A stretch of 17,746 bases of DNA. It comes from a virus. The translations under genes were made by a program, and so were the position numbers. Under the pieces are notes generated by a model that was not told the DNA's origin, did no database searches, and saw only the letters and a list, made by a program, of their open reading frames with translations. Location of the stretch: IMG/VR virus record IMGVR_UViG_3300045988_020405; one strand, given 5' to 3'. Below are positions 3,219 through 17,746 of the stretch, piece after piece (the stretch's first letter is position 1; every line of letters starts with the position of its first letter).

Positions 3219-4679
3219 ATGAAAGAGCGTCGAACGGCGGCAACAGACGGCGCAACACTCTTGACGGATGACGGCACGGAACCATTGACGGCGAACGCCG
3301 TCATCCGGCTTACCATGCTCGACCATCATACACGCGTATGGTGCGCCCACGGATGGCAGGATATCAAGCCCATAGCCGCCGAACTGTTGAAACGACTCCC
3401 CTTGCAATCGAATCCAGCCAAGGACGGCGTGTGGGGAACGTTCAACATTCGCGGCCACTTCTACAGTTTTCGCGTGCGCATGGGCGGCATCACCGTGGAT
3501 TTTCTGGACGTGCGCAATGTCACGCGAGACGATGGCCTGAATGTTTCACGTGAAACATTCGGAGGAACCACCGACTTGGAAACCACGTGGAACATCGCGC
3601 AGGAATGCGCCGCCCTGAACCTCAAGGGCACGACCATAGCATCAATGGCGGTGACCGACTACATTGATGGCGATTACGCCGGATTCAAACGCCATTTTCC
3701 GCCATTGGACAAAGAGGCTTATCATCGGATGCGCCCCGCCTACTATGGGGCGATAGTGTACAGCAAACCGGGTGAATACCGGGATTGCCGGAGTTGGGAT
3801 GTGAACAGTCTCTACCCAAGTATCATGCGCGATGCCCCCATGCCGGTAGATGCCCCCGTGTGGTATGACGGGAAGTATCGTTATGATGCTGATTATCCGC
3901 TGCATATCGACGTTATCGCGTTTGACGCGCGATTGAAAACGGGGAAAACGGCAACGCTCACCAATATCCTGCCAGTATGGGGGTATGAGGGCGAACGCTT
4001 GGACAGTACGCTCGGCGTCGTCACCATGCCCATCACGGATGTGGATTGGGAAACGCTCACGGAAAACTATGACATCCACGTGTGGGAACATGTCGGCGGC
4101 TGGAAGTTCCGCAAATCACACGGGTTATATTATACGTATGTGGACAAATGGTTTCACGTGAAACAAACCGCGACCGGAGAGCGCAGGCAGATGGCGAAAC
4201 TGTTACTGAACTCACTGGTGGGAAAATTCGGGGCCTCGCTCTACCGGCCCATGTTGCATCCGAAACCGTCAGTGGATGGTGGGGTGGATTTTACCGTGGA
4301 CAAACCCGAGTCGGCCAACAGTCTGGCATGGTTGCCGACCGCCGCATATGTCAACGCCTACGGGCGACAAATATTGTCCCGGGCGATGAATGCGAACGCC
4401 GACCGTGTACTTTACGCCGATACCGACGGCATGATATTGGAAGGGTTGGATGCGCCCTCAGGTATCGAAACAGATGACCGGAAACTAGGGGCGTGGAAAA
4501 ACGACCACACCTACGAGAAGCTCAGTATCCTAGGCAATCGTAAATACTGCGGTGTGGAAGCGGGTGGAGATACGGTAATGCGTTTGAGTGGTGTGCATCG
4601 TGCCGCCCCCATCCCCTATGATGAGTTCCTGCCGGGAGCGCGTCACCTCAATGATGATGGCCATAGTTTCGTGCTATAA
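3219..4679 (+). CDS. Protein-primed family-B DNA polymerase (phi29 gp2-like)
   Basis: SD AAAGGA. Motif A is DVNSLYPS (nt 3798-3821), motif B is KLLLNSLVGKFG, motif C is YADTDG, and the KxY motif is NRKY. There is long collinear similarity to remembered phi29 gp2, for example GKYRYDADYPLHIDVI vs GKYVWDEDYPLHIQHI. Confidence 0.95.
   Translation: MKERRTAATDGATLLTDDGTEPLTANAVIRLTMLDHHTRVWCAHGWQDIKPIAAELLKRLPLQSNPAKDGVWGTFNIRGHFYSFRVRMGGITVDFLDVRNVTRDDGLNVSRETFGGTTDLETTWNIAQECAALNLKGTTIASMAVTDYIDGDYAGFKRHFPPLDKEAYHRMRPAYYGAIVYSKPGEYRDCRSWDVNSLYPSIMRDAPMPVDAPVWYDGKYRYDADYPLHIDVIAFDARLKTGKTATLTNILPVWGYEGERLDSTLGVVTMPITDVDWETLTENYDIHVWEHVGGWKFRKSHGLYYTYVDKWFHVKQTATGERRQMAKLLLNSLVGKFGASLYRPMLHPKPSVDGGVDFTVDKPESANSLAWLPTAAYVNAYGRQILSRAMNANADRVLYADTDGMILEGLDAPSGIETDDRKLGAWKNDHTYEKLSILGNRKYCGVEAGGDTVMRLSGVHRAAPIPYDEFLPGARHLNDDGHSFVL
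3539..3560. repeat. 22-bp perfect palindrome containing GTTTCACGTGAAAC (copy 1, inside the polymerase ORF)
   Basis: GAATGTTTCAC|GTGAAACATTC, read directly. It encodes LNVSRETF. Confidence 0.95.
4151..4164. repeat. 14-bp perfect palindrome GTTTCACGTGAAAC (copy 2, inside the polymerase ORF)
   Basis: Read directly. It encodes WFHVKQ, a different codon phase from copy 1. Confidence 0.95.
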
Positions 4680-5233: not shown

Positions 5234-6967
5234 ATGCCAACCACTCCAGTGGTGACGCCGAAACAGCAGTTGCGACCGCTCACCGAATTCAACAACGCGC
5301 AGATTCTCAATATGATTCGCAACGAGGCATCCCCCGAATATCAGAGGCGTATGCCCTCGGCCACCCAAATGAACATGGACAGGCAGATGGCCACCCTCAT
5401 GTCATCCACCCAGCTAAAGAACGAGTTCTACTCGGCTCTGGTGAACCGTATCGGCGGCACCTACGTGAACACATGGCGGTGGAACAATCCGCTAAGTGTT
5501 TTCCAACGTGCGTCTCAGATGTATGGGGACACGTGGCAGGAAATCGCCGTAGGTATGCCGCTCGCACAGGTGTACGACCCCGACGCGGAATACTTGGGCG
5601 CGGACAACTTCCGTAAGTGGAAAATCGATGTGGATTCGCTCTACCATCGTCTGGACTTTGCTCACTGGTATCCCGCGACTACGGATGACAAGACGCTCCA
5701 GCGCGCTTTCACCTCCGAAACCGGCCTAGCCTCGCTCACCTCGCAGATTCTCACCTCCTGCTATAATGCCGCCGAGGTTGACTTGTTTGAGGCCATGTGC
5801 CACCAGTTCGTCGAGTATGCGAAACTCGGCGGATACTGGCGCGTGCACATGACCAATGATTTGAACAACATGGGCAGTTCGGAAACCGACGCGCGCGACA
5901 TGTTGCGCCAGATTCGCGCATGGGCTGACACGCTGAAGTTCGTGTCCACCCGGTACAATGCGCGTCATATGCCGACGTTTGCCCGCCCGGATGAGCTTGT
6001 GTTGTTCTGTTCGCCTGAAGTCAAGTCGGCGCTTGATGTTCAGGGTCTGGCCACGGTGTTCCAGCGCACGGACGCAGAACCGACCATTGACCGGATTATC
6101 GTCATTCCGCAGGACAGGTTTGGCATGGACGGCGTGCAAGCCATCCTCACCACTGATAAATTCCTCATTGACATCCCCGTCATTAATGAGATGACCCAGC
6201 AGACGAACCCGGTTAACATCAATTCGGTCAACCATTACCTGCACGTCCAGCACATTATCAGCGTGTCCGGCTTCGCCCCCGCCGTCATGTTCTGGACGGG
6301 CGCGGGTTCCACTGCCAACGTGGTGCCGCCTACCGGCACGACAGCCCAGACGCCGACCTTCCAACTTAAACTCGCCATGTACGGCGGCGGCTCGACCACG
6401 CCAACAAATGTGGCGCGTGGCGGCGCTGTGCAGGTCACTGCCGATACGACCATCACTAATGATGATACGGCTACGTTCCGGTCGGATGCTGTCGAGTACG
6501 CCATCGGTGATACCTCCAAGCCGAAGAGTGATTACACGTACATTTCGCCTACCGGCGTGCTGGTGGTCGGCCTTGATGAGCCGAACACCACTATTCCGAT
6601 TACCGCGACCGCGCTGTATACGAACCCGACGACACCGGAAGTGCCGTGCGCCGTGTCCGCCGCCCTGAGCGTGCCGGTGGTCGGTGATGGTGTCATCGGA
6701 TTCAACCCGTCGATTATCGCATCCATTGCCGTGACCATCCCGGCAGTGACCGTGAACCATGCGGCACAGGCGACCGCTACGGCGACCATGATTGACGGCC
6801 GAACCGCCGACGTGACTGCACAGGCCGCATGGACTTCAGGCACCCCAGCCAACGCCACCGTATCCGAGTCGGGTGTTGTTACGGGCGTCAAGGCAGGCAC
6901 ATCCGATATCACCGCCACGCTGTTCGGCGTATCCGGCAAGAAGGGCGTGACCGTGACAGTCCCCTAA
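5234..6967 (+). CDS. Major capsid protein (phi29 gp8-like) with C-terminal Ig-like (Big_2-type) domain
   Basis: ATG 5234 follows AGGAAGGA. SQILTSCYNAAEVDLFEAM aligns with remembered gp8 SSIINAIYNSAEVDEYEYM, and SALVNRIGGTYV aligns with TSLVDRIGLVVI. The C-terminus ATVSESGVVTGVKAGTSDITATLFGVSGKKGVTVTV is Big_2-like. Confidence 0.92.
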   Translation: MPTTPVVTPKQQLRPLTEFNNAQILNMIRNEASPEYQRRMPSATQMNMDRQMATLMSSTQLKNEFYSALVNRIGGTYVNTWRWNNPLSVFQRASQMYGDTWQEIAVGMPLAQVYDPDAEYLGADNFRKWKIDVDSLYHRLDFAHWYPATTDDKTLQRAFTSETGLASLTSQILTSCYNAAEVDLFEAMCHQFVEYAKLGGYWRVHMTNDLNNMGSSETDARDMLRQIRAWADTLKFVSTRYNARHMPTFARPDELVLFCSPEVKSALDVQGLATVFQRTDAEPTIDRIIVIPQDRFGMDGVQAILTTDKFLIDIPVINEMTQQTNPVNINSVNHYLHVQHIISVSGFAPAVMFWTGAGSTANVVPPTGTTAQTPTFQLKLAMYGGGSTTPTNVARGGAVQVTADTTITNDDTATFRSDAVEYAIGDTSKPKSDYTYISPTGVLVVGLDEPNTTIPITATALYTNPTTPEVPCAVSAALSVPVVGDGVIGFNPSIIASIAVTIPAVTVNHAAQATATATMIDGRTADVTAQAAWTSGTPANATVSESGVVTGVKAGTSDITATLFGVSGKKGVTVTVP

Positions 6968-6982
6968 TCTGCGATATAATAA

Positions 6983-7012
6983 AAGGGAGTGTTTCACGTG
7001 AAACACTCCCTT
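6983..7012 (+). terminator. 30-bp perfect palindrome (copy 3 of GTTTCACGTGAAAC); terminator-like hairpin after the capsid gene
   Basis: AAGGGAGTGTTTCAC|GTGAAACACTCCCTT begins 16 nt after the capsid stop and is followed by CTTTAT. Confidence 0.6.
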
Positions 7013-7030
7013 CTTTATGAAAGGGATAGT

Positions 7031-9280
7031 ATGCTGAGAGATATCAACCCTAACGTCGAGGCGACGTTTAACTGGGCTCAATGGACGCCCAACACGTCGC
7101 TGAAACTCTGTAACGTGCCGTGGGATAGCAGTTACCGTGACCTAGCCCGGTTCGAATCACCGCAGAAACAACAGGAATGGTTCGACCGACGGCCCGGCAT
7201 TGACAGGGTGCATGGAGTCATGCACATGTTCGGTCAACCCGTGCGCGTCGAACTGCCATTTAACGAGGCGTCCAACTACAACTATGTCGTGGTGTATAAC
7301 GATTACCCCGACTTGGAGACGCCACGGTATTGGTATTATTTCATCAACCACGTGGATTACATCAATGCGTACACTACTCAGCTCACTGTACAGTTGGACG
7401 TTTGGCAGTCGTTCCAGCATGTGCTTAGGTTTGGTTCATGCTATGTGGTGCGAGGCCATATCGGCATTGCCAACGAAAACCAGATGACCGATTATGGTCG
7501 CAGTTATCTCGCACTACCCGAAGGGCTGGACACCGGTAGCGAAATGGTGACGGTAAACCAACAGTACAAGTCTCTTATCAGCATGGACGGGAAAAATCTG
7601 AATTACGGCGTAATAGTCGTGAGCACGGTAGATTTGTCAGCGGACGCGGGCAGTCAGGAAAAACCGTCTCTCACTACTGCGGGCGGCTCTCTGTTTGAGA
7701 ACATGGCTAACGGTGCTGAAATACTGTACTTTAAGGATATCCAGTCTATCCAAGTGTTTATGGGAGTGGGCTCTACTTTTTCATGGATAACACAGGGTAT
7801 TGTAAACATGTACATGATACCCTCTTTAGATGATGACTTTCTTAAGCAATCCGGCTATGTCGTAGATAAGCTGTTTGGGAAAACACTCCCTTCGGAATTA
7901 AATAATCGTATCTACCGTTTCCCCCAGTCAGCCACAAATGCGCCCAGCAGATATGAAGACATTATTACCATTAATGATTTTCGTGATAATTTTAATATCC
8001 CTAAACGTTACAAAAACCTTAAAAAACTCAAATGCTACCCCTATTCTACTGTTGAATGCACTTGCTTGAATGGCACTAATATCACCTATAAGCCCGAAAA
8101 TATCCAAAGCGATAATCTGGTTATTAGAGAGGTGCATAATTACGCGCCCAATGGCGCGCGCTTGAACTTTTACCCGGTTGGGTACAATAAGGCGGGTGCA
8201 AGCGAGATTGCTCCTCTTGATAAAAACAATGGGTTGCCCATTGATAGCGGGGAAATGTTGGACGCCGCGTTTGGCATCAGCAATTTCCCTCAATTTGTGA
8301 TAGTCAACAATGGCGCTCAGTTGGCAATGGCAAACAGTGCCTACACTCGTTCCTACAGTCAACAGTCCGCTGGCTGGGCGTACCAAAAAGCGCAGATGGG
8401 CATCAGCCAGTCTCTTGCGGCCACGGCCATGCAAAACCAGTACAATACCCAAGCCAACAAACTCGCTATCGGCAACCGCAACGCCAATAACGCGATACAA
8501 GCAACCTCGCTTAACACCAGTCTGGACAACACGACATATATCAACAATCAGCGAGCTGACCTCGCACAGCTGAATAACGTGGTTAACGGCGTGGTCGGGG
8601 TGGCGGGTAACGCCGCTTCGGGCAATATCGGGGGCGCGGTATCGGCATTAGGCGGCGCGGTCATGAATGGCGTCAACACTGAAGCAAACCGCAGTATCAA
8701 CAATACCGCCGCCCAACTTTCCACGGCGAACTCGCTGAGTACCAACGCGGCCACAACAAGTCAGGCCAACACATACGGCTCTCAGACTACAGCGCTTTCA
8801 AACCAGTTGGCCCAAAATATGGCGGATATGAACGCGGATTACGCGCAACGTTCCGCGTTCGGAGACTATCAAAACACCATTGCGGGCATCAATGCACAGG
8901 TACAGCAGATGCAATTAACACCCCCGACCACATCCGGTGCCATCGGCGGAGACGGTTTTAACCTCGCAAACGGTATTGTCGGGGTGTTGGTTCGATTTAA
9001 GACGTGCGCACCCTCAGCTCTGCGGAGCGTCGGAGAGTACATGTTGCGTTACGGGTATTTTATCCAGCGTTTCATCACGCCGCCGCAATCGCTGGAATGT
9101 ATGACAAAATTCACCTACTGGCAGATGCAGGAGTGTTACGTGCGAGGTGATTTGCCCGAGCAGTATCGGCAGACCATTAAAGGCGTGTTCGAGTCTGGGG
9201 CTACTATATGGACTAACCCGGACGATATCGGCGTGACCGATTGGGCGGATAACGACCCATTGCCGGGCATTTCATTCTAG
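7031..9280 (+). CDS. Tail knob protein (phi29 gp9-like)
   Basis: ATG 7031 is preceded by AAGGGA at 5-nt spacing. YWYYFINHVDYINAYTTQLTVQLDVWQSF aligns with remembered gp9 [30 protein letters not shown]. The C-terminus YGYFIQRF...GATIWTNPDDIG aligns with YGYKINRV...GITLWHTDNIG. There is a Gly/Ala-rich hydrophobic loop. Confidence 0.9.
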   Translation: MLRDINPNVEATFNWAQWTPNTSLKLCNVPWDSSYRDLARFESPQKQQEWFDRRPGIDRVHGVMHMFGQPVRVELPFNEASNYNYVVVYNDYPDLETPRYWYYFINHVDYINAYTTQLTVQLDVWQSFQHVLRFGSCYVVRGHIGIANENQMTDYGRSYLALPEGLDTGSEMVTVNQQYKSLISMDGKNLNYGVIVVSTVDLSADAGSQEKPSLTTAGGSLFENMANGAEILYFKDIQSIQVFMGVGSTFSWITQGIVNMYMIPSLDDDFLKQSGYVVDKLFGKTLPSELNNRIYRFPQSATNAPSRYEDIITINDFRDNFNIPKRYKNLKKLKCYPYSTVECTCLNGTNITYKPENIQSDNLVIREVHNYAPNGARLNFYPVGYNKAGASEIAPLDKNNGLPIDSGEMLDAAFGISNFPQFVIVNNGAQLAMANSAYTRSYSQQSAGWAYQKAQMGISQSLAATAMQNQYNTQANKLAIGNRNANNAIQATSLNTSLDNTTYINNQRADLAQLNNVVNGVVGVAGNAASGNIGGAVSALGGAVMNGVNTEANRSINNTAAQLSTANSLSTNAATTSQANTYGSQTTALSNQLAQNMADMNADYAQRSAFGDYQNTIAGINAQVQQMQLTPPTTSGAIGGDGFNLANGIVGVLVRFKTCAPSALRSVGEYMLRYGYFIQRFITPPQSLECMTKFTYWQMQECYVRGDLPEQYRQTIKGVFESGATIWTNPDDIGVTDWADNDPLPGISF

Positions 9281-12335: not shown

Positions 12336-13268
12336 ATGTCCACTACACAGCACACCGGACACTATAATCTGCCAACGTTCGGCGACAGTCCGAACGACCG
12401 GCCGTCATGGCGCGGTGATTTTACCGACGCGATGACTAAAATCGATAATCAGATGTACGCCAACGCAACCAACACCACCACGGCAACGGCGGCGGCGAAC
12501 AATGCTAAGGCGGCGGCGGACGCGGCCAAGAAATCGGCCGATAACGCGGCAGGGCTTGCGCAAGCCAACAAGACCGACATTGCAGAGCAGGCATCCTACT
12601 TCAACGCGCTCGGTATCACGTCGGTGCCGACCGCGCGGAACCTTAAAGACACCATCAACGGCAAGGCGGAGAACACCGCACTTCAGGCGCTTCAGGGCAC
12701 CGTGTCAGGCTTGTCCGACAGCCTCAACGGCAAGGCGAACAGTAGTGAAGTGTATTCCAGAGCTCAGGCGGACACGACGTTTACCAAGCAGGGCGGATAC
12801 TCGGGCACCGCACAGCAAATCCACACTGAAGCGACAAACGCGACGGAATCGGCGGCGAACGTACAGAAGGAACTAACCAGCCTGAAAACCTCGGGACAGT
12901 CACCGGTTGCAGTGATTCAGCGAGTTAACGTGTTGACTAGTCATTTTTCTAACGTATCATGGACGGTATATTACTCACCGCTGTCAAAGTTCGTTAACAT
13001 CATGGTTCGTTTCGGTTCGGTAGATGGGCGCACCAACGCTAAATGTACGTCGAACGTGACCTCCGGTTCCCTTACCATCGGGACAATTCCGGCAGAATAT
13101 CGACCGGAAGGCTTTATGAACTCCTATTCATTCACGGTCGGTAACAGCTCCGGCCCATGCAACGTTAGTGTCAACGCTGAAGGGGTTGTATCCTTTTACT
13201 GTCAGGGGTCAATTGCGCCAAACGCTCAAGTGAAAGAGACACCACACCTCTCTTATTTTGTAATCTGA
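12336..13268 (+). CDS. Tail fibre / receptor-binding protein (paralogue B)
   Basis: SD GAAAGGA. It has the same N-terminal motif (HYNLPTF..DRPSWRGDFTDAMTKIDNQ), an Ala-rich coiled shaft, fibre repeats (SEVYSRAQADTTF) and a beta-rich C-terminal head. Confidence 0.65.
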   Translation: MSTTQHTGHYNLPTFGDSPNDRPSWRGDFTDAMTKIDNQMYANATNTTTATAAANNAKAAADAAKKSADNAAGLAQANKTDIAEQASYFNALGITSVPTARNLKDTINGKAENTALQALQGTVSGLSDSLNGKANSSEVYSRAQADTTFTKQGGYSGTAQQIHTEATNATESAANVQKELTSLKTSGQSPVAVIQRVNVLTSHFSNVSWTVYYSPLSKFVNIMVRFGSVDGRTNAKCTSNVTSGSLTIGTIPAEYRPEGFMNSYSFTVGNSSGPCNVSVNAEGVVSFYCQGSIAPNAQVKETPHLSYFVI

Positions 13269-13293
13269 TACCAACCTAACACCCCGCAGCCTC

Positions 13294-13339
13294 ATGTTTC
13301 ACGTGAAACATACCCCGTCCGGTACTCCGGGCGGGGTAT
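13294..13339 (+). terminator. Tandem hairpins after the fibre gene (copy 4 of the palindrome plus a GC-rich stem-loop)
   Basis: An 18-bp palindrome, ATGTTTCAC|GTGAAACAT, spans 13294-13311. It is followed by a stem 13310-13322 / 13327-13339 (13 pairs, one G-U) with loop TACT. Confidence 0.55.
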
Positions 13340-13348
13340 ACTAATACT

Positions 13349-14563
13349 ATGGTAGACGTACAAGCATGGTTGGAACGCACCCAAAACCAATACTGGGATA
13401 TGGACGGGGCTTACGGCGCTCAATGCTGGGACTTGTGGGCGAAATACTGCATGGACAATTACAATCTAAGTCTTGGTGATTGCATCACGCCCACAGGTTA
13501 CGCGGAGGGCAATTACACCATGTTCCCCACCACGGCGGCGGTTGGACGTGTTTTTGAGAAAAAGGACGCCGACTATACGCCCGGCATGGGGGATGTCGTG
13601 TTTTGGAGGTTCGGCAGTCAAAACTACCCCGGCAGTCACGTGGCCATCGTGTGGGGTGGCGTCCGAGGGGATAATATCGACGTGTTGACGCAAAACCCGA
13701 CGCCCGCCGTGCATCAATTGTTGCCGCTCGCGAAAGGTTCACAACTGCTTGGCTATCTGCATCCCACTGCATTGCCGGAACCGCCGGAATCTGGCGATAA
13801 TCCGACAGGCGGTAATAATCCGGGTGTGAACGTGGACGGCGATATCTCCGCGTGGATACAATTACAGGGCGATAACCTCGTATGTCACAGTGGTTCGGGC
13901 ACGACGTCATCGCAATCCGTTTTCTATAAGGCGAGCGCCCAGACTTGGATATATCGTGGCGGCACGGGTCAGCCGGACGCCGACCAAGGTCAGGGGACGC
14001 CAAGCGTAGGCGACGGGAAAAGCTCATACGCGCTCTATGTCATCGGCACTGTCGAGTCATCATTACGCTGGGATGCCGTCGAACCTAACAATCAGGGTAT
14101 CGGCATCGCACAATGGTCGTTTGGTAGACGCTTGCAGGTGTTGAACGCTATGAAAGCGGTTGACGCCGAGGGGTATAAGTCGTTTGCCGCTGCCGCGCCA
14201 AACATCGCCACGCTTATGGAATCAGGCGGCGCGTTCGATAGGGCGATGACCGGTAGCGAGGTCGCCGCATTCCAGACGTGGGCGCGGCGCACGGAATCAC
14301 GACAGGGTCAGCGTAATCAGTTCGCAAAGGATTACGAGGGCTACCCGCAGATGTATGATGATGTGAAAATGCAGATACTGTGGGTGAGCGCCTATCATCA
14401 AAGCCCGGCGGGCGCGTTGAATGTGCCTCATGCTTCATCTCTTACCCAACTGTATAATAATATCCTTAATACGCCTCCGTTCGGGCCATACGGGACGCGC
14501 TACAACACCGTCTACTCGCTGTTGAACGTGTGGGACGGCACCAGTGCGCCGCCGAACTTCTGA
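13349..14563 (+). CDS. Tail-associated peptidoglycan hydrolase: N-terminal CHAP peptidase + C-terminal gp13-type lysozyme-like domain
   Basis: The CHAP signature has its Cys in GAQCWDLW and its His in PGSHVAIVW. The C-terminal part, GTVESSLRWDAVEPNNQGIGIAQWS, resembles the phi29 gp13 N-domain pattern QSES...G.G..QW. It occupies the gene-13 position. Confidence 0.85.
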   Translation: MVDVQAWLERTQNQYWDMDGAYGAQCWDLWAKYCMDNYNLSLGDCITPTGYAEGNYTMFPTTAAVGRVFEKKDADYTPGMGDVVFWRFGSQNYPGSHVAIVWGGVRGDNIDVLTQNPTPAVHQLLPLAKGSQLLGYLHPTALPEPPESGDNPTGGNNPGVNVDGDISAWIQLQGDNLVCHSGSGTTSSQSVFYKASAQTWIYRGGTGQPDADQGQGTPSVGDGKSSYALYVIGTVESSLRWDAVEPNNQGIGIAQWSFGRRLQVLNAMKAVDAEGYKSFAAAAPNIATLMESGGAFDRAMTGSEVAAFQTWARRTESRQGQRNQFAKDYEGYPQMYDDVKMQILWVSAYHQSPAGALNVPHASSLTQLYNNILNTPPFGPYGTRYNTVYSLLNVWDGTSAPPNF

Positions 14564-14564
14564 C

Positions 14565-14604
14565 ACAGTGACAAACCGGTAGATATATACCGGTTTGTCA
14601 CTGT
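14565..14604 (+). terminator. 17-bp perfect hairpin immediately after the hydrolase stop codon
   Basis: ACAGTGACAAACCGGTA (14565-14581), loop GATATA, TACCGGTTTGTCACTGT (14588-14604). All 17 pairs were checked. The U tract is weak. Confidence 0.55.
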
Positions 14605-14615
14605 TGTATGGTAGT

Positions 14616-15722
14616 ATGGATACTATGGAGAGGCTGTTAGCTGAGGGCGATTATTACGATTATGGGAGCGTATTATCCTATCACGCGCCTTGGATGTTCG
14701 TAATCGGCGCACGCGGCCTCGGAAAAACCTACGGAGCCAAAAAACTGGTCATAGGCGACTGGATAAAAAAACGCTGGCAATTCATCTATCTAAGACGTAC
14801 CGCCGAAGAACAGAAAAACAAGGGCACGTGGTTCGCAGACATCGCGGAACAATACCCGAAATTAGAGTTCCGCATATCCGGCAATCAAGCAGAATGTCAC
14901 TGGCTGGATGACAGGGACGCCACCACGGACAAACACGGCAAGACACGCCCAACATGGCACATCATGGGGTACTTCATCGCCCTCAGTCAAGCAGGACAGG
15001 TGAAATCGGTGGCCTATCCCAAGGTGCGAACCATTGTTTTTGATGAGATTTTCCCCGATAATATGCGGTATTTGGGCGGTGAAGTAACCGCGCTTGAGGA
15101 GTTCTATAATACGGTTGACCGTTGGAATGATAGGGTTCGCGTCATCATGTGCAGTAACGCGGTGACGTTGGCCAACCCGTATTTCAGCGCGTTCAACATC
15201 AATCTTAAACCGCAACTGGACAATCGCACGCAATACCAGCGCTATTGCAACGGGTTTATCATGGTGGAACTGGCTGACTACGGAGGGTTCAGCGCCAAGG
15301 TGGCCACCTCGAAATTCGGGCAGTTTTTACGCGAATATGACGAAAATTATGCGAATTATGCAATCAATAATGATTTCAGGGATAACGCCAATACTCTCAT
15401 CAGTGATTTCAATAACGCCGGTTATGCGTTCACATTAAGAACCACCGAATACGGTATTTTCAACGTGTATCAACAATTGAGTGACACCGATGAAGTATTA
15501 TATGTCATCACCAAGAAACAGCCGAAAATCACTAGGGATTTTACGTTTGACTACCGCCTAGTTGACAATGATTGCATCATGCTCAAACGTTCCGATGACA
15601 TGACACAGAAAATACTGAACGCCTATCGCGTCGGACGATTGCGTTTTGAAACACCGCAAATCAAAGCAGAATTCAGTATGATTCTTGGCGGCTTGTTGCA
15701 ACAATCAGGCATAAGAAAGTGA
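14616..15722 (+). CDS. DNA encapsidation ATPase (phi29 gp16-like)
   Basis: Walker A is GARGLGKTY and Walker B is RTIVFDEIF. FVIGARGLGKTY aligns with remembered gp16 FVIGARGIGKSY, and RVIMCSNAVTLANPYF aligns with RCICLSNAVSVVNPYF. The start is uncertain, either ATG 14616 or ATG 14625. The track's TTG 14595 lies inside the hairpin. Confidence 0.92.
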   Translation: MDTMERLLAEGDYYDYGSVLSYHAPWMFVIGARGLGKTYGAKKLVIGDWIKKRWQFIYLRRTAEEQKNKGTWFADIAEQYPKLEFRISGNQAECHWLDDRDATTDKHGKTRPTWHIMGYFIALSQAGQVKSVAYPKVRTIVFDEIFPDNMRYLGGEVTALEEFYNTVDRWNDRVRVIMCSNAVTLANPYFSAFNINLKPQLDNRTQYQRYCNGFIMVELADYGGFSAKVATSKFGQFLREYDENYANYAINNDFRDNANTLISDFNNAGYAFTLRTTEYGIFNVYQQLSDTDEVLYVITKKQPKITRDFTFDYRLVDNDCIMLKRSDDMTQKILNAYRVGRLRFETPQIKAEFSMILGGLLQQSGIRK

Positions 15723-17465: not shown

Positions 17466-17663
17466 TCACTCAACTACACGATTCAAAAAAACCACAGGCT
17501 CAAAATAATAACGATAAAACTCGACCCCCTCACGCTCATACATAACAACAAGACAATCAACAATAGCCTCAACATCATAATCCACAACACGCTCACCACT
17601 GTTGCGAATATAATCAACAACCTCATTCTCAATGTCTTGACGATACATCATCTCAACCACCAT
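17466..17663 (-). CDS. Hypothetical right-end early protein (65 aa; alternative start at 17651)
   Basis: Its first five codons (MVVEM) lie inside the ITR and are identical to those of the left-end ORF 84-311. The rest is unrelated. Its stop overlaps the alternative GTG of the next ORF. Confidence 0.45.
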   Translation of the reverse strand: MVVEMMYRQDIENEVVDYIRNSGERVVDYDVEAIVDCLVVMYEREGVEFYRYYFEPVVFLNRVVE

Positions 17664-17746
17664 CCTTTCTATATCCTTGGTTGATACTTATATAATAACA
17701 CACCAAAAAAACAACACGCCCAACACACAAAAAAACAGCAAAAAAA
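17648..17746. repeat. Right inverted terminal repeat (99 bp)
   Basis: Exact reverse complement of 1-99. The window ends in A7, which is T7 at the 5' end of the minus strand. Confidence 0.95.
17687..17714 (-). promoter_or_regulatory. Mirror copy of the ITR promoter, firing leftward into the right-end genes
   Basis: Identical sequence by ITR symmetry, located upstream of the minus-strand ORF 17466-17663. Confidence 0.35.

Follow-up and report, generated by a model that had tools for sequence, protein, structure and literature searches.

Why should one palindromic DNA word be written twice into a single viral gene, in two different codon phases? The question arises in IMG/VR virus record IMGVR_UViG_3300045988_020405, whose 17,746 bp were analysed as a whole and are referred to below as the window. 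It constitutes a linear phage genome in full, bounded by inverted terminal repeats of 99 bp that match perfectly, and the gene in question (3219-4679, + strand) encodes a protein-primed family-B DNA polymerase (Pfam DNA_pol_B_2, E=2.3e-32). An earlier examination by a model of the letters alone, hereafter the sequence-only reading, had placed both copies correctly, with their sequences and reading frames (3539-3560 and 4151-4164). Scanning the whole window revealed four exact copies of the 14-mer GTTTCACGTGAAAC, starting at 3543, 4151, 6991 and 13296. The copies at 3543 and 4151 lie inside the polymerase open reading frame (ORF), where they are read in two different frames, while those at 6991 and 13296 are intergenic. 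Such a number is not expected by chance: in 200 dinucleotide-preserving shuffles of the window, matches averaged 0.07 even when up to two mismatches were tolerated, and not one shuffle reached four.

The word has a known counterpart. The 16-mer TGTTTCACGTGAAACA is the consensus parS, the centromere-like site bound by ParB/Spo0J, and it has been contrasted with the Noc site TATTTCCCGGGAAATA; facts from the parS survey of Livny 2007 are taken second-hand from PMC10197239. When matches with no more than one or two mismatches to TGTTTCACGTGAAACA were scored as parS, three of the four copies were found to match at 16/16 positions and the remaining one at 15/16. Noc-binding sites (NBS) resemble parS in being 16-bp palindromes with a ParB-family binder and similar outer bases, and differ from it at the specificity positions, which are A2 and C7 in NBS. 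All four copies in this phage have GTTTCAC half-sites, with G2 and A7 as in parS.

The first of these sites, parS-1 (3542-3557), carries TGTTTCACGTGAAACA itself, matches the consensus at 16/16 and lies in the polymerase ORF, where it is read as AAT GTT TCA CGT GAA ACA TTC (codons 108-114, NVSRETF). In this genome it is extended to a perfect 22-bp palindrome, GAATGTTTCACGTGAAACATTC, at 3539-3560. The second, parS-2 (4150-4165), has the sequence GGTTTCACGTGAAACA and matches at 15/16; it lies in the same ORF, just upstream of the segment encoding polymerase motif B, and its 14-mer core (4151-4164) is read within TGG TTT CAC GTG AAA CAA (codons 311-316, WFHVKQ). The third, parS-3 (6990-7005, 16/16), forms the tip of a perfect 30-bp palindrome (6983-7012) between the capsid gene, which ends at 6967, and the tail-knob gene, whose ATG is at 7031; upstream of this palindrome stands TATAAT (6975-6980), and downstream of it a T-rich tail. 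The fourth, parS-4 (13295-13310, 16/16), sits in an 18-bp palindrome (13294-13311) between the ORF at 12336-13268 and the CHAP/lysozyme tail-lysin gene (ATG at 13349), with a conserved GC-rich hairpin directly 3′ of it.

The sequence-only reading had proposed that conservation of the two intragenic copies acts at the level of nucleic acid. We therefore compared the locus in 80 related contigs, whose polymerases show 88-96% protein identity and a mean nucleotide identity of 85%. The exact 14-mer was kept at the position of copy 1 in 63/80 loci and at that of copy 2 in 47/80. Presence of the word at matching positions in most of 80 independently assembled relatives indicates that it is not an assembly artefact. 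At copy 1, the majority 14-nt word accounted for 0.78 of distinct sequences, which ranks 6th among 1448 windows along the polymerase gene; at copy 2 its share was 0.58 (rank 82/1448), against a median of 0.27. Synonymous diversity was lowered as well, to 0.134 in the codons of copy 1 (rank 13 of 482 five-codon windows) and to 0.215 in those of copy 2 (rank 73/482), compared with a gene mean of 0.327. The reduction is thus evident at copy 1 and more modest at copy 2, and together with the word retention it bears out the proposed constraint on nucleic acid.

Conservation of the encoded peptides with different codons would have pointed instead to the protein, and the sequence-only reading had named it, together with flat transcript coverage, as the result that would overturn its proposal. 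In distant polymerases (those of Bifidobacterium phages and phi29, 27-36% identity), NVSRETF is not conserved, and of WFHVKQ only W and K are invariant, FHV being replaced by SEL, GDL, YGR or TYI. Since FHV is variable between two fixed residues, parS-2 has been written into a variable tripeptide. The single mismatch of this copy to the parS consensus, at its first base, is explained by the same arrangement, because that base is the last one of the invariant Trp codon TGG and is therefore fixed. The palindrome can be accommodated in an ORF in two frames only, as VSRET or as FHVK, and the family uses both; the third frame is closed because TGA arises on both strands. Taken together, the use of two frames, the existence of non-coding copies, the high conservation and the lack of peptide conservation in distant polymerases establish that the constraint acts on DNA and is imposed on the coding sequence.

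What is constrained at copy 1 does not include the whole palindrome found in this genome. The flanking codons vary among relatives (ACA or ACG, TTC or TTT), and the 22-bp extension was accordingly rejected as a selected feature. In the frame used by copy 1, the wobble positions are one another's symmetry partners (3542/3557, 3545/3554 and 3548/3551). Three relatives carry at this position a doubly compensated and still perfect palindrome, GAACGTCTCACGTGAGACGTTC, which probably goes back to one evolutionary event.

Comparison of the 80 loci further uncovered a turnover of sites. Five site positions are used in the family, corresponding to 3543, 4151, 6991, 7154 and 13296 of the window. The intergenic site at 6991 is present in 37/80 loci and the site at 7154, inside the tail gene, in 27/80, and no locus has both. 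In relatives carrying the latter (e.g., L060 and L013) it reads CGG TTT GTT TCA CGT GAA ACA CAG, encoding R-F-V-S-R-E-T-Q; the window has at 7147-7173 a diverged non-parS sequence that is 3 nt longer. These same relatives possess a different capsid-tail spacer, with GC-rich hairpins that lack parS. This spacer (e.g., in L059 and L077) contains two such hairpins, the second with CCACGTGA at its tip, a sequence similar to the central part of parS and possibly left over from it. In L003, the entire 30-bp palindrome has been precisely deleted from a spacer homologous to window 6975-7020, leaving TATAATAA joined directly to TATGAAAGGG; the 6991 site and its hairpin are thus dispensable, and the deletion is consistent with palindrome instability. 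Copy 4 is found in 11 family loci, in at least three upstream contexts, and sister genomes have decayed, indel-bearing or deleted versions of it. Allowing up to one mismatch to the 16-mer, at least one site is present in 75/80 loci, most of which have two to four. Such a pattern would be expected if selection acted on whether, and how many, binding sites a genome has rather than on a local RNA signal.

The word is not confined to this family. A scan of viral contigs returned at least 120 stretches with the perfect 16-mer; about 26 among the 120 listed are distant phi29-like phages with 21-37% amino-acid identity and a GC content of 32-48%, as judged by polymerase, capsid, connector or ATPase homologues. 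Among the matches listed, these distant phages often have two to four sites, sometimes in close pairs, located in other genes and spacers. The cultured phi29-like phage CI130P1 of Clostridium innocuum (L222, 10355) has one perfect parS inside its polymerase gene, and its relative CI461P1 (L217, 10264) has a one-mismatch parS at the homologous position. Clostridium innocuum is a spore-former.

As a positive control we scanned phi29 itself (NC_011048) and recovered TGTTTCACGTGGAACA four times, along with a single degenerate site. Annotated genes fully contain three of these copies; the remaining one overlaps the stop codon of gene 16 and is next to terminator TD1. This agrees with the five parS sites ascribed to phi29, where Spo0J is involved in DNA segregation to the prespore (Meijer et al. 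2005, as summarized in PMC2731898). Match to the consensus, over-representation, conservation at the DNA level, turnover, recurrence in other phages and the phi29 precedent all support the same identification. We conclude that there is good support, from sequence and statistics as well as from comparison and precedent, for identifying the repeated palindrome as parS, the ParB-binding site.

Which protein might bind these sites? Searches of the sizeable phage ORFs against Pfam, PHROGs and PDB sequences detected neither ParB, ParA nor any other DNA-binding domain, and a phage-encoded ParB or regulator was rejected for this reason. With no ParB detectable in the phage, the likely partner is the ParB of the host, as in phi29. 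To identify that host, we relied on gene relationships. When 50,697 phage records were compared, the polymerase matched best to BD811P1-3, BP1, BadAztec and BadAargau, all of them Bifidobacterium phi29-like phages, at 34-36.5% identity; their gene order is near-identical to that of the window, and identity across their other proteins is 35-56%. For the endolysin, identity is 63% to the product of a gene on the Bifidobacterium phasiani chromosome and 57% to lysins from phages of B. asteroides. A further link is provided by MT836241 (L001), which has 81% nucleotide identity to Bifidobacterium phage BP1 over 9.2 kb. Its proteins are otherwise 35-53% identical to those of the window family, but MT836241 10859-11025, comprising parS, hairpin and the 5′ end of the lysin gene, is 88% identical in nucleotides to window 13290-13456. 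A module shared at this level points to recombination between clades, in a shared host. These relationships make Bifidobacterium the probable host. A review reports ParABS in all Actinobacteria, with ParB, ParA and DivIVA interacting at the poles, and all 12 OMM12 gut genomes, that of B. longum included, have ParABS homologues and consensus-type parS sites.

We consider it probable that the four palindromes are chromosomal-type parS sites bound by host ParB, through which phage DNA would be handled like a chromosome origin. ParB dimers would nucleate at the sites and, with CTP, would spread as sliding clamps until much of the linear 17.7-kb molecule was loaded. Coated in this way, phage DNA would be treated as an origin region, undergoing ParA-driven segregation and polar anchoring, and phage genomes in cells not yet lysed would pass to daughter cells, creating a carrier or persistent state. 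The extended palindrome of copy 3 would probably serve in addition as a transcription terminator after the capsid gene. Such a scheme would generalise the strategy of phi29, in which Spo0J/parS puts the genome into the forespore, to a host that is probably Bifidobacterium, a genus which does not sporulate. ParB loading, spreading and a role in partition or persistence are what we infer from the sites. Bifidobacterium forms no endospores, and together with the lack of enrichment of Spo0A boxes this suggests that the entrapment of phage DNA in spores known from phi29 probably does not apply here.

Several observations weigh against this proposal. The host is a putative one, as is the specificity of its ParB for these sites, and the partition outcome is extrapolated entirely from the presence of the sites. 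Scans of five cultured phages (BD811P1, BD811P2, BP1, BadAztec1 and BadAargau2) and of 80 BP1-like metagenomic contigs returned zero parS, and parS as a general trait of Bifidobacterium phi29-like phages was rejected on these grounds; the trait is clade-specific. Within the family, L058, L062 and L075 have lost every exact site, from which it follows that the sites are not essential. Spo0A boxes (TGTCGAA) number three in the window against 2.77 expected, with none at promoter-like sites. Finally, copy 3 also fits a terminator. A wider proposition, that mimicry of the host centromere is a general, sporulation-independent persistence device of 'virulent' protein-primed podophages, ensuring partition to both daughters, is advanced tentatively, and we would sooner expect it to fail than to hold.

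Binding by host ParB need not imply partition. The phage could benefit instead from titration of ParB away from the host origin, replicating phage genomes disturbing host segregation and division; from positioning or compaction aided by SMC, in the service of replication or packaging; or from the silencing of nearby phage promoters by ParB spreading. Such benefits are favoured by the multiple sites of high-affinity type on a genome reaching high copy number, and two of the sites abut promoter-like elements. The literature describes both repression by ParB in the neighbourhood of parS and the loading of SMC at such sites. The sequence separates none of these outcomes from partition. The sole studied precedent, phi29, points to segregation, and loss of the sites in some lineages speaks against their being central to replication or packaging. 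We regard a benefit of this kind as a genuine but lesser possibility.

The sites could alternatively be operators for a dimeric regulator encoded by the phage, comparable to phi29 p4 and controlling late promoters, their resemblance to parS being fortuitous. Their surroundings offer some encouragement: a strong promoter-like site with an 11/12 match (GTGACA-16-TATAAT), which includes the conserved TATAAT, directly precedes copy 3, copy 4 is upstream of a conserved TATACT-ATG arrangement, and several early ORFs have no known function. But no DNA-binding domain was detected in the early ORFs, and two of the sites are deep inside a gene, distant from promoter-like sites. The exact word is moreover found in phi29-like phages only 21-37% identical in protein, parS is also present in phi29, where the binder is host Spo0J, and a 16/16 match to the host centromere at three sites would have to be coincidence. 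Control by a phage regulator is thus improbable.

Slightly less probable still, and in our view very unlikely, is action of the palindromes as hairpins in RNA (or single-stranded DNA) for termination, attenuation, pausing or processing, with the intragenic copies modulating polymerase mRNA. The sequence-only reading had suggested that the intragenic hairpins, identical to the phage's terminator cores, could attenuate or process this message. Folding predictions are favourable at two copies. Copies 1 and 3 each form the palindromic hairpin with a z-score of about -4.2, and that of copy 3, placed after the capsid gene, has a 13-bp stem, a 4-nt loop and an energy of -21 kcal/mol and is followed by a U-rich tail. 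Relatives show compensatory changes in the stem extension of copy 3 and in some cases longer T-runs, such as TTATTTTTTT; the doubly compensated variant of copy 1 in three relatives would likewise preserve pairing. In contrast, copy 2 is predicted to form no palindromic hairpin (z=+0.71), the minimum-energy fold around copy 4 leaves the palindrome unused, and the 22-bp extension of copy 1 is not conserved. No U-tract follows copies 1, 2 or 4, and a terminator scan listed none of the four copies, not even copy 3, which fits a Rho-independent terminator approximately. Compared with such terminators, copy 3 is alike in stem, loop and U-rich tail, whereas copies 1, 2 and 4 lack both a U-tract and a stable or conserved stem. 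Furthermore, the invariant element is the 14-16-bp parS word and not any stem, and it recurs in unrelated phages and in many contexts. Since relatives with the 7154 site retain intergenic hairpins devoid of parS, terminator and parS are separable. The attenuator was rejected on the folding and terminator results. What survives of the earlier suggestion is a plausible second function of copy 3 as terminator after the capsid gene, terminator cores at copies 1, 2 and 4 being discounted; the alternative it had also mentioned, binding sites, proved to be the right one, as all four copies share the 14-16-bp duplex word of ParB-bound parS. Constraint on the protein (W311 and K315, flanking copy 2, are invariant polymerase residues), chance, or passenger DNA from a host chromosome is effectively refuted by four copies against about 0.07 expected in shuffles, two of them non-coding, by the conservation ranks, by peptides not conserved in distant polymerases, and by copies that stand in frame inside a conserved gene without foreign flanks and recur across 80 assemblies.

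The surroundings of the intergenic sites show some further regularities. The GC-rich hairpin next to copy 4 (ATACCCC...GGGGTAT, 13311-13351) has many compensatory stem variants across relatives, and is followed by TATACT, 5-6 nt and the tail-lysin ATG, with no Shine-Dalgarno sequence. A matching layout precedes the gp16 ATPase gene (14565-14630), with a 40-bp near-perfect palindrome, TAGTAT/GATACT and ATG. From its sequence, this succession of hairpin, TATACT and ATG looks like a terminator combined with a promoter for leaderless mRNA.

The genome that harbours the sites is that of a small gut phage with a gene set of phi29 type. Its + strand encodes the DNA polymerase, a capsid protein (Phi29_MCP), tail knob, connector and gp16 packaging ATPase, as well as a phi29-type SSB, a holin, a GH25-LysM endolysin and the CHAP/lysozyme tail lysin; every gene except small ORFs at the right end is on this one coding strand. 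The polymerase ORF has motifs A, B and C and was aligned with its counterparts from phi29 and Bifidobacterium phages. Its first ~130 residues (window 3219-3620) show no alignment to the phi29 motifs ExoI, ExoII and ExoIII, and only residues 132-341 fall within the Pfam match, so that the proofreading domain may be reduced or lost; a short N-terminus is common to the polymerases of Bifidobacterium phages. The left kilobase (1-1000) is strongly G/T-rich on the + strand (GC skew 0.40), TGGTGAGGTTTGTT occurs three times at 221-284, and the right-end inverted terminal repeat occupies 17648-17746. A search of the window against Rfam gave zero matches, including to packaging RNA (pRNA). The 90%-identity cluster of the polymerase has 2144 distinct members, and contigs of the members listed for the three clusters looked up reach ~19 kb at most. 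No polymerase relative was found among 185,579 representative bacterial and archaeal genomes. This phage has never been seen integrated, which speaks for an extrachromosomal lifestyle.

Identification of the word as parS explains how one DNA sequence came to be forced into two reading frames of the polymerase gene. A mechanism for which phi29 of Bacillus had been the only phage studied is thereby extended to a family that is very abundant in the human gut. Should Bifidobacterium be the host, hijacking of ParB would serve an end other than spores, most plausibly the inheritance of phage DNA in dividing cells, which would bear on the stable coexistence of strictly lytic gut phages with their hosts. 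Under the tentative wider proposition above, a lytic phage without integrase would be heritable as a carrier state, and this could help explain why it is so prevalent in metagenomes of the human gut. As a simple marker of the strategy, one may look for perfect parS words in small viral contigs. Synonymous recoding would suffice to remove both intragenic sites, and relatives naturally free of parS provide controls.

Comparison with known systems places the phage sites as follows. In the chromosomal parS/ParB(Spo0J)/ParA system the recognition 16-mer is identical and the sites are likewise multicopy, but those described here are on the genome of a virulent phage, not near oriC, and have no linked parA or parB. 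Plasmid-prophages such as P1, N15 and the extrachromosomal prophages of mycobacteriophages (PMC7157519) also have centromere-like sites on an extrachromosomal phage replicon. They differ in possessing their own ParA and ParB, with private parS sites clustered beside those genes; searches with Pfam, PHROGs and PDB sequences found no ParA or ParB domain in any ORF of the window, and hence no self-encoded ParABS cassette.

The closest parallel is phi29, from which phage parS was already known; here it is present in a probable Bifidobacterium phage, with a non-sporulating host. The two differ in several respects. The sites of phi29 are a one-mismatch Bacillus variant, TGTTCCACGTGAAACA, whereas three of the four in the present phage have the perfect consensus; Spo0A boxes are part of the phi29 strategy and are unenriched here; all genes but the small right-end ORFs are on one strand in the present phage; and, as its probable host forms no spores, prespore entrapment could not be the outcome. 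Yet both are protein-primed podoviruses of phi29 type without a ParB of their own, and both have dispersed copies of a host-type parS, some of them intragenic. The parallel extends to transcription signals, since phi29 site 17243 adjoins terminator TD1 and copy 3 is itself terminator-like.

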